The notes: generated from the letters alone by a model not told the origin. A stretch of 64,000 bases of DNA from Candidatus Falkowbacteria bacterium (GCA_003518055.1 DOZJ01000004.1:6073-70072), one strand, 5' to 3'; positions 6,783 to 64,000 are shown, counted from the stretch's first letter. Numbers and translations are program-made.

Positions 6783-6869
6783 GCCGCGGTGGCGGAACTG
6801 GTAGACGCGCTGGACTCAAAATCCAGTGATGGCGACATTGTGAGAGTTCGAGTCTCTCCCGCGGCACCA
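6783..6869 (+). tRNA. tRNA-Leu (anticodon CAA), class II with a long variable arm and an encoded CCA end.
   Basis: Cloverleaf folded by hand. Acceptor gccgcgg/ccgcggc; anticodon loop ctCAAaa; variable arm of about 15 nt; 3' end ACCA. Confidence 0.85.
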
Positions 6870-7120
6870 CCTTAAAAGAAATATAAGACTAGCTCAGAGA
6901 CGAGAAGTTTACCCTGAGCGAAACGTAGTGGAGTCGAAGGGAGTCTCTCCCGCCTGCCCGCCGTAGCTTTAGCGAAGGTGGGCGGCACCACCTTAAAAGA
7001 AATATAAGACTAGCTCAGAGACGAGAAGTTTACCCTGAGCGAAACGTAGTGGAGTCGAAGGGAGTCTCTCCCGCCTGCCCGCCGTAGCTTTAGCGAAGGT
7101 GGGCGGCACCACCTTAAAAA
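6870..7120. repeat. Two complete 121-bp tandem direct repeats plus the partial start of a third. Each unit ends with a copy of the tRNA-Leu 3' end (gagtctctcccgc...ggcacca) followed by ccttaaaag.
   Basis: Exact period of 121 bp: ccttaaaaga starts at 6870 and 6991, and the truncated ccttaaaaa starts at 7112. Confidence 0.9.
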
Positions 7121-36708: not shown

Positions 36709-37173
36709 TTGTTAAAATGTCTATATATGGAAAATACCCACCCCACAATTCAAGACGTCCTTCAAGCAGTCAATGCGACAACCGAATCAACAAACAAACA
36801 ATTCGCCCAAATTCAAGAACAATTTAATGATGTCTTGCAATCGGTAAACACAGCTTCTGAATTGACCCAGAAACAATTTGATCATGTTCAAGAACAATTT
36901 GATCACGTTCAAGGACAATTTGATCAGATGCAAGGCCAAATCACCGAAATAAATGAAACCATGGCCACGAAGGCTGACTTGGCCGATCTTGTTACCAAAG
37001 ACTACCTTGACAACAAACTCGCTGACCTGCGTGGCGATTTAGTTGTTTTAACGCGTAAAGAAGACACCAAACTAAAAAAACTGGTGGATATTTTGACCAC
37101 AAAAAATCTTCTTTCCCCGGAAGAAAAAGAAGTCATTTTTGCCTTGGAGCCATTTCCGAAAACTCGCTTATAA
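36709..37173 (+). CDS. Hypothetical coiled-coil protein with QF-x-x-VQEQFD heptad-like repeats.
   Basis: Repeats QFAQIQEQFNDV / QFDHVQEQFDHVQGQFDQMQGQ. Confidence 0.4.
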   Translation: MLKCLYMENTHPTIQDVLQAVNATTESTNKQFAQIQEQFNDVLQSVNTASELTQKQFDHVQEQFDHVQGQFDQMQGQITEINETMATKADLADLVTKDYLDNKLADLRGDLVVLTRKEDTKLKKLVDILTTKNLLSPEEKEVIFALEPFPKTRL

Positions 37174-37269: not shown

Positions 37270-37319
37270 AAGCTAACAGCTCTAAGCTAACAGCTCTAAG
37301 CTAACAGCTCTAAGCTAAC
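37270..37319. repeat. A 14-bp tandem repeat (aagctaacagctct) in 3.5 copies.
   Basis: Exact copies at 37270, 37284 and 37298, with a partial copy at 37312. Confidence 0.9.
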
Positions 37320-45585: not shown

Positions 45586-45730
45586 CTCCCGCCCTAAAAG
45601 ACGGGAAAAATTCTCTTCCCCGCGGCTTTCTTGACTGCCGAAGCTTCAGCGCAGGCAGTAGCCCGGGAGCTCAACTCGGCCTCCCGCCCTAAAGGACGGG
45701 AATAATTCACTTCCCCACGGCTTTCTTGAC
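45586..45730. repeat. Two imperfect 50-bp direct repeats, 95 bp apart. Each carries a small hairpin (tcccgcc...gacggga) and ends in ggctttcttgac.
   Basis: Copy 1 at about 45586-45635 and copy 2 at about 45681-45730. They are roughly 90% identical. Confidence 0.7.
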
Positions 45731-54648: not shown

Positions 54649-54948
54649 TATAAACGAATATACTGTCATTCATTTTACAAATAAAACAAAACTTTGTAAA
54701 GAGGCCGAGAATGAGTATCGGAACAAATGCTATTCTTTGTCCATCGGTTTGTCATAATTTCACCACGTTTCGCTAATTACACCAACATCCATCCTCGTAT
54801 ACGCCATGGCCATCCTGTTGCGATAAGCCCTGAGCCAGTCTGCCGACAGACAGGCTAATCGAAGGGCGACAAAGCAACCTCGTAAGTGCTTCAATTTTCT
54901 CATATCCCTTTTATATAATTTAAAAAAGCTCCTTATTTAAGGAACTTC

Positions 54949-58092: not shown

Positions 58093-58422
58093 ATCCCACT
58101 CAACTGAGTAGGATTTATATTCATCTTTAAGTAAAAATCATTTTTACTTTATAGCAATGACAAATATAAATCCCACTCATAAACTACTTTCGGTGATTGT
58201 TTAAAATTCAAAATCACCCCGCGCAGTTTATAGGCAATCGCGCGCAAAATACTCATTTGCTTAATTTTCATTTTTTGATTCATCATAATGATAACGTCAA
58301 TGAATTTCATATAACTAAGGATATCCAAGCCTGACTGTCTTTCCAAGCTTAACCAGAAATCAAAACACTCAACCGTTAGAATCCCTTTATTCATCTTCAA
58401 AGGAGACCAAACCTGACTGTCT

Positions 58423-58458
58423 TTCCGGGCCTGCCTGCCGGCAGGCAGGCTTGACCCG
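58423..58458. repeat. A 22-bp perfect palindrome gcctgcctgccggcaggcaggc (58429-58450) with extended near-palindromic flanks.
   Basis: Read from the sequence. Related copies occur at 59169-59189 and 15061-15100, and there is a partial copy at 63447-63456. Confidence 0.85.
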
Positions 58459-58618
58459 GAATCTAAGCCCTCGGCCGCCACCATTCCTCATCAAAACCGG
58501 ATATAACACTTTACAATTTTATTTATTTATTGTCAATAGGTAATTTTTAACTTATTTTAGCCACTTATATAAATTTAAATAAAAAAATTGAGTCGTTAAC
58601 TCAAAATTTGTATCCATA

Positions 58619-58936: not shown

Positions 58937-59246
58937 CGCCCCCCCTTTGTAGATATGAATAACTCATTCTAGCACCGAAGCTTGAACTTGTCAATCATTA
59001 AAAAATTAAATCAGAAACTCGCCCTCAACCGCCGCCGTTTTTTTTTACTTCTCTTATTCTCCCAATTTTCCGCCTTCTAACGCCTTTTTCCGCCCCCTTA
59101 CCCCGTCTCTCTAATCTCTTAATTCTCTCAATCTGCCTTACCAATTAATTTCTGCGCCAGAGGCGCATCCCTGCCTACCGGCAGGCAGGCGTCTTTGGCG
59201 GATATTTATTTCCAGTAATTTCGATGAATTTATTAATCATTTCAAT

Positions 59247-59268
59247 CCCGCTTCTCGCGAGAGGCGGG
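59247..59268. repeat. A 22-nt near-perfect palindrome cccgcttctcgcgagaggcggg.
   Basis: Read from the sequence; a single G.T position breaks perfect symmetry. Confidence 0.8.
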
Positions 59269-59297
59269 ATCAATCTCTCAATTCTCTCAATCTCTTA

Positions 59298-60196: not shown

Positions 60197-62107
60197 CTAT
60201 TTACACAGTCTGAGTGAACCAATAAGCGCTAGCTCCTCACACTTTTTTCCGGTTGGACAATCATTATCACCCCGGCAACCACAAACGCGTTTCCCCATAA
60301 ACTCAGGAAAATACTGACTTCTGGAAGGATTATTACAAAGGTTTGTTAAACACTGGTCAGCATCATCACACTCTGCTCCATATGACCGCCTCTCAAGACA
60401 ACGGCCGCCCACAGTTTCATCAATCTTACAATATTGTTCATCATCACAATCTTCGTCATCATCACAACCGCAGGTTCCTTTTTGACAAGAATCGGACAAA
60501 CATTCCCAATCGTCATCACACGCCTGTGTTATAGTCTTCCCCGGAACACAGGTATTTTGCATCCCCGAATTTTCTTTACACAGCATCCCTTCAGGACAAC
60601 TCCCATCATTCGGACTGCATTCACAAATCCCCGTGGCATCATAGCAATCACCGCTGATACACCCATCATCCCCTCGATCGCCACAAGCAGTGCCGGACGG
60701 AACCTTGTCTGTAGTAGAACAAACCCCCCAATTTCCGGTATCCACACATATTTTCCCAAACGGACAATCCGCCGTGCTATTGCATGAACATCTATAGGTA
60801 ATTATTTCTTGATCACTGACTTGTTCTGAAGCAACACAACTGCCTTTTATACATTCAGAATCATTTCCAGTACAAACATTCCCGATCGGAATACTGCCTT
60901 TTGTAACATAACATTCATCATCCTCATAAGAATGTCCATCTTTATCTACCATATCCGCTATCGGTTTATCACCGCAAAACAATTTTCGTGTATCCACATC
61001 AATACTAATCGCTGTTTTATCAGTCCCCACCAATTCATTCCTATTGATCAAATCGCAACCTTCGGTTATCACCAACCGCCCATCTCCACCACAGCTGTAT
61101 TTACAGCAAATAGAACCATCAATTCCAATCGGATTGCCATATCTATCTATTGAATATGAATGATCCCAACTTGGACCAAAAGCCGGAGTATTGGATTCAA
61201 TTGATAAATAATAAGTTTGAGCATTAAATTCATCGCTTCCGACCCAATTTGGCAAAACATCATTCTGACCAATGGAATAATTTGTTTTCTCAGAATAAAA
61301 ACGCGCCAACCCCATTTGAGTATCCTCTGCACCAATTCTATTAGCTTTCAATCTGACATAATCCACGTATGCTTCGGGATATTCAATTATATCTCCATAA
61401 ACATAAGCGAAAACACATTGATATGTCCCATCAAACTGATCACAGGCATCAGTTGGATTATCACATTTACTAGATATACATGTTTTTTGAGTCAAATTCA
61501 TCTGCACGCCACGCTCAACAGCTTTATTGTATTCAATTTCATATGTTTTTCCATCTCCGCATTTGGCCGTCGCCGGGTCATATCCCTTGATCGTAAACAT
61601 GGTCTGATCCAATCTTTCACAAAACTTCGAATCACCGGTCACAATTTCAATTCGTTTCACCTGTTCCACCTCAATCGACGGCAGCTTGGTTAAATCCGGA
61701 TTAATTTGATACAAAATTAAATATGACCCGAATAAAATCACCATGCCGAACAACGATGATAATATATACCCCTTGGCCTTGGAGACACTGCCCGGGTTCA
61801 CCCCGGCTGTGAGATACATCAACCCGCCGACGATTATCATCAACACCGAGAACATCGCCCCGATCCGTAAACCATAAAAATAAATCGCTCCGATATATTG
61901 CGCGATCCACGGAATTTTCGTGCAATCATTATCCGGATTGTTCGAACACGGCCCGACAATCGGCTCATCCAATTTGGTTAAATCGCCGATCGGTACATTC
62001 AGCGTCACATCACGGATATCCGCCGCGAGTGCCATCGCCACATCGAGCACGGTAAATAAAACAAACACCGTGATAAATAAAATTAGCAATTTATTTTTGT
62101 TTTTCAT
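60197..62107 (-). CDS. Large Cys-rich surface protein with an N-terminal VirB2/TrbC-like two-helix membrane module. Paralog of 1314..2108 with the module order swapped.
   Basis: N-terminal IAQYIGAIYFYGLRIGAMFSVLMIIVGGLMYLTAGV...KAKGYILSSLFGMVILFGSYLILYQI aligns to the C-terminus of the 1314..2108 protein. The C-terminal half carries many Cys modules such as CDDDWECLSDSCQKGTCGC and CDDADQCLTNLC. Confidence 0.6.
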   Translation of the reverse strand: MKNKNKLLILFITVFVLFTVLDVAMALAADIRDVTLNVPIGDLTKLDEPIVGPCSNNPDNDCTKIPWIAQYIGAIYFYGLRIGAMFSVLMIIVGGLMYLTAGVNPGSVSKAKGYILSSLFGMVILFGSYLILYQINPDLTKLPSIEVEQVKRIEIVTGDSKFCERLDQTMFTIKGYDPATAKCGDGKTYEIEYNKAVERGVQMNLTQKTCISSKCDNPTDACDQFDGTYQCVFAYVYGDIIEYPEAYVDYVRLKANRIGAEDTQMGLARFYSEKTNYSIGQNDVLPNWVGSDEFNAQTYYLSIESNTPAFGPSWDHSYSIDRYGNPIGIDGSICCKYSCGGDGRLVITEGCDLINRNELVGTDKTAISIDVDTRKLFCGDKPIADMVDKDGHSYEDDECYVTKGSIPIGNVCTGNDSECIKGSCVASEQVSDQEIITYRCSCNSTADCPFGKICVDTGNWGVCSTTDKVPSGTACGDRGDDGCISGDCYDATGICECSPNDGSCPEGMLCKENSGMQNTCVPGKTITQACDDDWECLSDSCQKGTCGCDDDEDCDDEQYCKIDETVGGRCLERRSYGAECDDADQCLTNLCNNPSRSQYFPEFMGKRVCGCRGDNDCPTGKKCEELALIGSLRLCK

Positions 62108-62225: not shown

Positions 62226-63425
62226 TTACTTCAACATTTTTTCAAAAATTACTCGTATTTCTTCTTTCGTAATATCTCTGCCCCCGAGTCCCATTGAATA
62301 TGATTTGATTTCCGCTGAACTTTTGCCGTAAAGCGCTGCTTTGACTTCCAAATCCAACCCGCCGGTACTGCCAAACGCGATATCTTTTTCTATAATCGCG
62401 ATTTTTTCGCAACCATTCAATACTTCACCTATTTCCTTTTTGGGAAACGGCCGGAACATCACCACATTCACCACCCCCACCCCCCTGTCACCCTGCTTGT
62501 CCCCCTGGTTTATCCTCTCTCGCTTGTCACCATGCTTGTCCGCCGAAACGCTAGTGAAGGCGGAAGGCTCTCGAAGGGTCGAGTTCAATTCATCCACCGT
62601 GTCTTTTATCGTTCCGACCACTGACCCGAAAGAAATTATCACCGCCTCCGGCTTTTTGGCGCCGTAATATTCAACCGATTTATACTCACGGCCGAAAACC
62701 TGTTTAAATTTTTTATTTTCTTTTATAAACAATCCTTCAGCCGCCAGCAAATCCTGCTGCAGCTCTTGTCTGAATTCCTGATAATGCTCCGGCGTCACGA
62801 ACGCGCCCAAAGTCACCGGATGATTAACGTCCAAAATCGTATTCTTCGCCGCTTTATATCTCGGCAGAAATTGTCTTATCTGATTTTTACTCGGGACATC
62901 AACCGGCTCAACCGTATGCGTCAAAATAAAGCCATCCATATTCACCACCGCCGGCACTCTTAATTCTTCCGCCATTCTATAAGCTATGATATGCAAATCC
63001 ACCGCCGCCTGATTATCCTCGGCAAAAAGCATCATCCACCCAGCGTCGCGCATGGCCATCGCGTCCTGCTGGTCATTCCAGATATTGATCGGCGCCGACA
63101 CCGCCCGATTGGCGAGCGTCATCACCACTGGCAGCCTGAGCCCGGCCGTCGCGTAGACCACCTCCATCATCAGGAGTAATCCCTGCGCGCTTGTGGCCGT
63201 ATACGTCCGCCCGCCGGCCGCCGCCGCCCCCTGCACAATTGACGCGGCCGCGAACTCACTGTCAGCTTGAATAAATTCAAAATCCGCCCGATGGGAATTT
63301 TTCAGCCACGCGAGATATTCCACTATATGTGTTTGCGGGGTGATCGGATACGAGGCGACGACATCCGGCTGGCAATTCGCCACCGCGCTCGCTACCGCTT
63401 CCGAACCCTCAATGCATTTTTTCAT
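62226..63425 (-). CDS. porA: Pyruvate/2-oxoacid:ferredoxin oxidoreductase alpha subunit.
   Basis: GSEAVASAVANCQPDVVASYPITPQT; typical domain order. It carries an in-frame insertion of about 38 aa at about residues 281-318. Confidence 0.85.
   Translation of the reverse strand: MKKCIEGSEAVASAVANCQPDVVASYPITPQTHIVEYLAWLKNSHRADFEFIQADSEFAAASIVQGAAAAGGRTYTATSAQGLLLMMEVVYATAGLRLPVVMTLANRAVSAPINIWNDQQDAMAMRDAGWMMLFAEDNQAAVDLHIIAYRMAEELRVPAVVNMDGFILTHTVEPVDVPSKNQIRQFLPRYKAAKNTILDVNHPVTLGAFVTPEHYQEFRQELQQDLLAAEGLFIKENKKFKQVFGREYKSVEYYGAKKPEAVIISFGSVVGTIKDTVDELNSTLREPSAFTSVSADKHGDKRERINQGDKQGDRGVGVVNVVMFRPFPKKEIGEVLNGCEKIAIIEKDIAFGSTGGLDLEVKAALYGKSSAEIKSYSMGLGGRDITKEEIRVIFEKMLK
62472..62585. repeat. 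Repeat-like insertion inside porA that preserves the reading frame. It shares tgtcaccctg and ctctcgaagggt motifs with the intergenic sequence at 63430-63480.
   Basis: The encoded segment NSTLREPSAFTSVSADKHGDKRERINQGDKQGDRGVGV has no counterpart in PorA family proteins. The nucleotide motifs were matched by eye. Confidence 0.5.
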
Positions 63426-63515
63426 AATTTTTATACTTTGTCACCCTGAGCCTGCCTACCCTGAGACTCTCGAAGGGTTACACTCGTTCGACAACTTCAA
63501 CATGACACAAAAAAT

Positions 63516-64000
63516 TTAATTTAATTCCCTTTTTAGCTCTCTAATAAGTTTAATATTTTTTTCCAGAATCTCCGGCCGATCGTGAAAAACTTCCTTCACC
63601 GCTTTGATCACATTCTCCAATTTGATTAACCCTGTTTGCTGGGCAAACCAATAAACCATGGCTGTATTGACAATATCCCGACCCAAAAACTTCTTGACTA
63701 CTGATGCCATATCATAAACCACGACCGTAATCATTTTATTTTTGGGTTTATAATCAACGGCATTGGCAAAAACCAACCCTTTTTTCTTCAACCCATCAAA
63801 CACATCAACCTGATCAAACAACCGCTGATCGAACACCAACAAATAATCCGGCTCATAGATATGCGCTCTGAGTCTAATCGGCTTATTATCAATTCTAACA
63901 TATGACTCCACCGGCGCCCCGCGTCTTTCAACCCCAAAAAAAGGAAACGCCTGCACTTGGTGACCTTCATAAAACGCGGCCTTTGCCAGCATCTCTGCCG
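63516..64000 (-). CDS. porC: Pyruvate/2-oxoacid:ferredoxin oxidoreductase gamma subunit; N-terminus beyond the window.
   Basis: AEMLAKAAFYEGHQVQAFPFFGVERRGAPV; the frame is open to the window edge. Confidence 0.75.
   Translation of the reverse strand, partial: AEMLAKAAFYEGHQVQAFPFFGVERRGAPVESYVRIDNKPIRLRAHIYEPDYLLVFDQRLFDQVDVFDGLKKKGLVFANAVDYKPKNKMITVVVYDMASVVKKFLGRDIVNTAMVYWFAQQTGLIKLENVIKAVKEVFHDRPEILEKNIKLIRELKRELN

Follow-up and report, generated by a model that had tools for sequence, protein, structure and literature searches.

The window, by which we mean the whole 64,000-nucleotide (64-kb) stretch of DNA from Candidatus Falkowbacteria bacterium that was analysed, carries part of a por locus:

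62226–63425, minus strand: porA, encoding the alpha subunit of pyruvate:ferredoxin oxidoreductase (PFOR), 399 aa (open reading frame and Pfam)
63516–64000, minus strand: porC, encoding the gamma subunit, with its start past the window end (Pfam POR)

PorA contains the thiamine-diphosphate-binding domain POR_N (7.9e-70) and PFOR core domain II (PFOR_II, 4.8e-20), and a solved PFOR alpha subunit, 9bt4_B, matches it at 3.1e-86. The Pfam assignments place porC upstream of porA and a gene for a TPP_enzyme_C (beta) subunit downstream, the context of a por operon. The complete porC, of 192 aa, is present in the genome stretch L001 (9332–9910, corresponding to window 63516–64094). Over bases 9301–11250 of L001, which cover porA and the spacer in full and porC in large part, four assemblies have identical sequence. 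The assemblies derive from four sample records, of which two belong to a single groundwater project, and one of the assemblies is a Logan run assembly. A database protein (P0001), named pyruvate ferredoxin oxidoreductase of Candidatus Falkowbacteria by NCBI, is 100% identical to PorA. The nearest homolog after it is P0002 from Falkowbacteria CG10_39_11, the sister species, with 69% identity, and the databases searched contained no closer relative apart from the identical P0001. The P0002 locus is syntenic, with the order porC–porA–(ORF of about 630 aa)–TPP subunit. In the window, the ORF between porA and the TPP (beta) gene (60197–62107, minus strand) encodes a cysteine-rich protein of 636 aa that has a hydrophobic segment at its N-terminus and matches no Pfam family; the arrangement is kept in the sister genome, where the counterpart has 629 aa and a weak match to T4SS_pilin.

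PorA contains an in-frame insertion ahead of its conserved RPFP region:

62481–62582, minus strand: extra coding segment S282–G315, 34 aa, STLREPSAFTSVSADKHGDKRERINQGDKQGDRG (protein and DNA alignments, 9bt4_B alignment)

Protein and DNA alignments show that P0002 holds a five-residue turn, KQKKK, where PorA has S282–G315. Similarly, 9bt4_B aligns to PorA residues 4–280 and 315–396 with five residues between the two blocks (the alignment breaks at query 280/315 versus chain 291/297). Relative to both proteins the net gain in PorA is 29 aa (87 nt). A first-pass annotation of this DNA had proposed about 38 extra residues at this position; the insertion stands, with the size reduced, as N281 and V316–V318 within its 38-residue string are conserved rather than inserted. 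The annotation was right that the reading frame is preserved, the ORF being open and stop-free across the segment, and the closest ortholog, P0002, carries no equivalent segment, in keeping with an insertion. The inserted copy has a length that is a multiple of three and is free of stop codons in its reading frame; its GC content is 60%, against 50% in the remainder of porA, and its predicted read-through product, which includes the string STLREPSAFTSVSADK, is hydrophilic and rich in glycine and charged residues. The sequences flanking the insert, GATGAATTGAAC and GGTGGTGAATGTG, are native and also occur in the ortholog, so that their likeness does not represent a target-site duplication, and none is visible. 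A match of ATAAAC between the insert and the ortholog loop lies in another reading frame and was taken as coincidence.

An AlphaFold2 model of PorA, built with a 60-sequence alignment, had a mean pLDDT of 86.6 and a pTM of 0.87. It places residues 285–314 in coil between a helix (269–284) and a strand (315–321) of PFOR domain II, and the blocks over the insert have pLDDT values of 51 and 44. The same loop varies among homologs. The segment from GS to RPFP spans 33 aa in 84 of 110 PorA homologs and 62 aa in the PorA of the window, the longest among the homologs compared. Sixteen of the 110 homologs have other insertions in this loop, making it 6–17 aa longer, and some of these are visibly palindromic. 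The insert of P0088 contains a CCGCC..GGCGG hairpin, CCGCCAAGGCTTCGGCGG, encoding PSSAKASAGK in the PorA frame, while that of P0097 (L106) is a different palindrome, CTCGCCCCTCTCCTAGGCAAGAGAGGGGGTGCGAG. A second loop of P0097 contains the in-frame sequence CCTTGCCTGCCGGCAGGCAGG (the CCTGCCGGCAGGCAGG palindrome), whose translation is SPLPAGRQE and which lies between AATTCCCAATTCC direct repeats; this is the same palindrome as the CCTGCCTACCGGCAGGCAGG palindrome of the window, described below, which is likewise flanked by repeats. These recurrent insertions identify the PorA loop as a permissive site that has been hit repeatedly.

On its sequence, the inserted DNA is a repeat-derived mosaic of nested hairpins, with the following parts:

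62486–62579, minus strand: composite palindromic element, reading on the sense strand ACCCTTCGAGAGCCT, 69 nested nucleotides and CAGGGTGACA (exact terminal motifs)
62537–62563, minus strand: nested hairpin B, CCGCCTTCACTAGCGTTTCGGCGGACA, translated as SAFTSVSADK (pattern scan and sister copy)
62475–62505 and 62514–62544, minus strand: direct repeat of 31 nt in two copies, 77% identical and 39 nt apart (repeat family D3)

The element is 94–102 nt long. A hairpin unit, TGTCACCCTGAGGCTCTCGAAGGGT(GAC), is split between its two ends, TGTCACCCTG ... CTCTCGAAGGGT; this unit forms the outer or 'frame' hairpin and encodes TLREP...QGD; the pattern CCCTG..TCGAAGGG spans the insert. The canonical frame unit is roughly 25 nt long, with an 8-bp stem, GTCACCCT/AGGGTGAC, and the loop GAGGCTCTCGA, and in the porA copy only ACCCT/AGGGT remains of this stem. 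Nested in the loop of the frame unit, and unrelated to it, is hairpin B, with the core CCGCC-TTCACTAGCGTTTC-GGCGG at 62540–62563, followed by several GGNGACAAGC units. The 31-nt repeat supplies an extra left half, TGTCACCCTGCTTGTCC, ahead of the complete unit TGTCACCATGCTTGTCC.... Both the CTTGTC direct repeats reported in the first-pass annotation, which belong to this 39-nt-spaced repeat, and its CCGCC/GGCGG hairpin are present. Its view of the segment as a repeat-like insertion holds as to repeat origin; the segment is not one single repeat, as it combines at least two hairpin families. The RNA fold of the whole insert is no better than that of shuffled sequence (z = −0.28).

The spacer between porC and porA contains a related element:

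63437–63509, minus strand: spacer element with the frame hairpin TGTCACCCTGAG..CTCTCGAAGGGT and the outer inverted arm CTTCAACATGACACA (repeat match and fold)

Across the whole 64-kb window, exact matches to TGTCACCCTG are confined to two positions, 62486 and 63439, and those to CTCTCGAAGGGT to two others, 62568 and 63467, which bears out the earlier claim that the motifs of the insert recur in the spacer. The loop of the spacer hairpin contains a CCTGCCTACC palindrome fragment, and the outer inverted arm closes the entire element; this fragment, too, had been noted, as had the full palindromes of its family at 58430 and 59170, both of which have the full CCTGCCTRCCGGCAGGCAGG form. Intact spacer-type elements with a nested CCTGCC palindrome, carrying CCTGCCTGTCGGTAGGCAGG, were found in three metagenome stretches (L107, L115 and L120). 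Between the two Falkowbacteria the spacer as a whole (63426–63515; L005 9896–10000) has 84% identity, compared with 69% for the PorA proteins. It forms a long hairpin closed by GUGUCAUGYUGAAG / CUCAGGGUGACA, with marginal RNA fold scores (z about −1.8), and may serve the operon as a functional RNA element.

In the sister species hairpin B lies in the spacer, in a copy that matches the one in porA at 25 of 27 positions. The sister genome has a second copy on the unlinked contig L045, which matches the spacer copy of the same genome at 39 of 40 positions; a CCTGCCTGCCGGTAGG palindrome and a CTCTCGAAG motif are joined to it. The point of nesting differs: hairpin B follows ACCCTT in the sister spacer versus ACCCTTCGAGAGCCT in porA. 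The insert was considered as a simple copy of an ancestral spacer, and this was rejected because hairpin B sits at different points of the frame unit. Matches to the strict hairpin B pattern are few, with one in the 64-kb window and two in the sister genome assembly, consistent with a low copy number.

Further modules of these types are dispersed through the window:

6912–6941, plus strand: frame hairpin CCCTGAGCGAAACGTAGTGGAGTCGAAGGG in the first 121-nt unit after tRNA-Leu (pattern match)
7033–7062, plus strand: frame hairpin in the second 121-nt unit (repeat family D1 and pattern match)
6958–6985 and again 7079–7106, no strand assigned: hairpin-B-like palindrome CCGCCGTAGCTTTAGCGAAGGTGGGCGG splitting the copy of the tRNA-Leu 3' end (hairpin scan)
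54828–54866, plus strand: intergenic frame hairpin with a nested CAGTCTGCCGACAGACAGG palindrome (family D13 and pattern match)
58430–58449, no strand assigned: CCTGCCTGCCGGCAGGCAGG palindrome, a third module family (repeat and palindrome scan)
59170–59189, no strand assigned: CCTGCCTACCGGCAGGCAGG palindrome (repeat scan, family D11)

A loose pattern for the frame hairpin, CCCTGAG..CGAAGGG, has five matches at four loci besides porA in the window, where 0.02 are expected by chance; these are at 6912, 7033 and 54828, together with two overlapping matches in the porC–porA spacer that represent one locus. The first two lie in the region 6783–7106, where two exact tandem units of 121 nt come after tRNA-Leu(CAA) (6783–6869). 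Each unit contains a frame hairpin and has at its end a copy of the tRNA 3' end (GAGTCTCTCCCGC...GGCACCA) split by the CCGCCGTAGCTTTAGCGAAGGTGGGCGG hairpin. In other phyla, hairpin B was also seen in or beside partial tRNA copies (L016, L026, L029, L093 and L097). Direct repeats of 22 nt, AATCTCTYAATTCTCTCAATCT, at 59113 and 59272 (159 nt apart) flank the CCTGCCTACCGGCAGGCAGG palindrome (59113–59293). The CCTGCCTGCCGGCAGGCAGG palindrome is read through as LPAGRQA by a 111-aa ORF (58149–58484, minus strand); public assemblies annotate this ORF as a gene, and it is likely to be spurious and repeat-derived. The window also contains local repeats unconnected with these modules: a 21-nt unit in three tandem copies (36872–36934), a 14-nt tandem unit (37270–37319) and a 50-nt pair 95 nt apart (45586–45730).

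Beyond the window, a metagenome scan that used the two terminal motifs of the porA insert as query returned 22 stretches, from which the canonical unit TGTCACCCTGAGGCTCTCGAAGGGT(GAC) emerged; its copies often contain nested palindromes or iterate the left half. Iterated left halves stand ahead of a complete unit in L110, L116, L117 and L119, as in the porA repeat. In these four stretches and in L127, TGTCACCCTGAG half-units and complete TGTCACCCTGAGGCTCTCGAAGGGT hairpins are densely packed in tandem, and a GTTCCAGCGACGTAAGCCACCCTA-like spacer recurs between them. Copies of the motifs are thus found in the window, the sister genome, public genomes and metagenomes, as the repeat interpretation of the first-pass annotation had anticipated.

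Turning to hairpin B, a genome scan with the pattern CCGCCTTCACN{4,10}TTCGGCGGACA, limited to one genome per species, found the stem CCGCCTTCAC..TTCGGCGGACA with the same closing bases in 96 genome stretches. The hosts include Patescibacteria, Bacteroidota, Ignavibacteria, Verrucomicrobiota, Planctomycetota, Bradyrhizobium, Gammaproteobacteria and others. A single loop-length class, the 27-nt form, accounts for 59 of the 96 stretches, which argues against chance matches; the commonest loop is TAAAGT. In viral contigs no frame hairpin was found, and hairpin B had one match, of the long-loop class and possibly due to chance, so there is no sign of carriage by phages. Searches of Rfam with the window (at the gathering threshold), with the insert and spacer (E up to 10) and with 18 hairpin B loci yielded no family for any module; the matches in these scans were to tRNAs, plus one Acido-Lenti-1 elsewhere in L011. 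No paper in the literature library searched describes these modules, which is no proof that they are undescribed.

Many hairpin B matches in low-GC genomes sit within long ORFs, where they mostly read SAFT.VSAD[KR], the PorA frame, or, on the opposite strand, LSAET.VKAE. Three such copies represent clear net insertions when compared with solved homologs. In LeuRS from Patescibacteria, 20 aa are gained between the CxxC motif and VPE; in peptidyl-tRNA hydrolase (Pth) from Moraniibacteriota, 9 aa are gained; and in a gammaproteobacterial Lon, 24 aa are gained before the Walker A motif. The LeuRS and Lon copies are in the PorA frame (SAFT.VSAD), and the Pth copy is on the opposite strand (LSAETLVKAE). 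Two further candidates for clear insertions were not upheld: a HolB/DnaX-like protein (L078) gained only 5 aa, and a pyridine-nucleotide oxidoreductase (L030/L103) had no net length change. In the latter case, two Gammaproteobacteria MAGs have hairpin B at the same site of a pyridine-nucleotide-disulfide oxidoreductase, and the unchanged length was judged against the solved homolog 2eq6; the hairpin has either taken the place of a native turn or been inherited from an old copy. In one Verrucomicrobiota MAG (L035, L055 and L081) and one Saccharibacteria MAG (L051 and L100), every hairpin B copy found lies within a long ORF; by eye, these ORFs were identified as MurF, a GrpE-like protein, an S16-like tail and an L7/L12-like extension. 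By hand count, about 15 of 19 coding copies are biased to SAFT.VSADK and LSAET.VKAE among four open frames. This bias suggests, tentatively, additional selection for benign peptides.

Considering these observations together, we think it most likely that a small non-autonomous palindromic repeat has become fixed in the gene and that its read-through translation yields the extra PorA residues. A palindromic repeat would have landed in a permissive turn of PFOR domain II and, once fixed, would be read through as a hydrophilic, disordered surface loop of 29 residues. Because the insert is a multiple of three in length, lacks stops and encodes a hydrophilic peptide, the enzyme would gain a disordered loop and most likely be functional. 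The preservation of the frame can be explained by survivorship, since any insertion that is observed in an essential gene still intact is necessarily an in-frame one. The translation of the insert, its neutrality or at least tolerance by the enzyme, and its arrival by mobility or recombination of hairpin modules are all presumed here. Mobility of the modules we infer from their dispersed, mosaic distribution only. The nesting of modules in one another's loops may hint at hairpin-targeted insertion, or at recombination or template switching between hairpins. In practical terms, porA is most likely an intact and functional gene.

An unlikely alternative is that the insert is adaptive: the protein would gain a new surface that serves docking or regulation, or the porCA–porB transcript would gain an RNA hairpin that affects processing or translation. 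Its fixation in four of four assemblies and the hand-counted frame bias (about 15/19) would fit this, and the 84% conservation of the spacer element, set against 69% identity of PorA, suggests a function for the intergenic copy. However, beyond the conservation of the spacer copy it finds no positive support: the conformation of the segment is predicted to be disordered, the RNA fold of the insert is unexceptional, the syntenic ortholog functions without the segment, and purifying selection against disruptive frames would produce the frame bias equally well. Somewhat less probable still is a lineage-specific expansion of the loop by slippage or duplication of native codons, to which the resemblance to repeats would be secondary. 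The internal direct repeat with 39-nt spacing, whose distal copy abuts the conserved VGVVN strand, and the variable loop length in 16 of 110 homologs are compatible with such an expansion, but slippage accounts only for the iterated left half. The exact 10-mer and 12-mer at the termini match a hairpin unit from unrelated metagenomes, the 27-nt hairpin is common to 96 genome stretches and the sister spacer, and the ortholog loop contains none of the insert sequence.

Very improbable is the removal or skipping of the segment, as an intron-like element, an intein or by translational bypass, such that it never appears in the enzyme. In yeast mitochondria, ribosomes bypass GC-rich palindromic inserts, which lends this idea a precedent. 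Against it, the segment is open and in frame, so that removal is unnecessary; it has no Rfam match to an intron or ribozyme and is far too short for an intein; and the independent in-frame cases in LeuRS, Pth and Lon also keep the frame. Finally, an assembly or sequencing artefact has a negligible probability, given that identical DNA in the four assemblies from four sample records excludes an assembly artefact.

Read-through of a fixed palindromic repeat in porA could be one instance of a more general process, in which hairpin modules of 25–30 nt, common to bacterial phyla and nesting mutually, repeatedly colonise permissive surface loops in essential proteins, in preferred frames. The modules concerned would be GTCACCCTGAG..CGAAGGGTGAC, CCGCCTTCAC..TTCGGCGGACA and CCTGCCGGCAGGCAGG, the proteins PorA, LeuRS, Pth and Lon, and the preferred frames SAFT.VSADK or LSAET.VKAE. 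We advance this generalisation tentatively, at a little less than an even chance of being correct. If it is true, protein-loop evolution of the kind driven by Rickettsia palindromic elements (RPEs) would extend far beyond Rickettsia and be especially visible in CPR genomes. Such modules would be a source of loop insertions in streamlined CPR proteomes, and in the annotation of MAGs they would repeatedly give rise to odd low-complexity segments and to spurious ORFs. A 27-nt sequence that is kept or spread across phyla also raises the question of how this comes about. The interest of the findings lies mainly in this cross-phylum hairpin and in the recurrent in-frame insertions in essential genes.

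Among known repeat systems, the first-pass annotation had likened the insert to elements of the Rickettsia type. RPEs are small palindromes found in intergenic regions and in frame in unrelated housekeeping genes (Ogata et al. 2000, summarised in PMC10969869), and their peptides are translated extra segments compatible with the protein fold (PMC10969869). The likeness is apt as regards behaviour: the porA insert is in frame, stop-free and adds a predicted peptide, whose translation is presumed from the reading frame. The two differ in architecture. RPEs are single units of about 100–150 bp that fall into ten families and number in the tens in each Rickettsia genome, whereas the porA case involves nesting hairpins of 25–30 nt, a low copy number, a CPR host and one module found across phyla. 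Non-autonomous inverted-repeat elements of the MITE class that occur within genes (ERIC, BOX, QMITE1) can also fuse in frame with host ORFs (PMC10969869). Unlike these, the porA element lacks a visible target-site duplication, and its terminal inverted repeat is only 5–8 bp.

In architecture, a closer parallel is offered by REP/BIME mosaics, which consist of short imperfect palindromes (20–40 nt) assembled with other short motifs, lie mostly between genes and are often located at gene ends. The nested and mosaic arrangements described above are of this kind. REPs and BIMEs are extragenic, species-specific and linked to RAYT transposases. In contrast, the porA copy and several others lie within ORFs rather than between genes, and one of the modules occurs across phyla. 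Judged by its sequence features, the porA element thus appears RPE-like in behaviour and closer to REP/BIME mosaics in architecture, and we assign it to neither family. In-frame palindromic repeats in essential genes are known mainly from Rickettsia; porA presents the same outcome in a CPR bacterium, achieved with much smaller, nestable hairpin modules.
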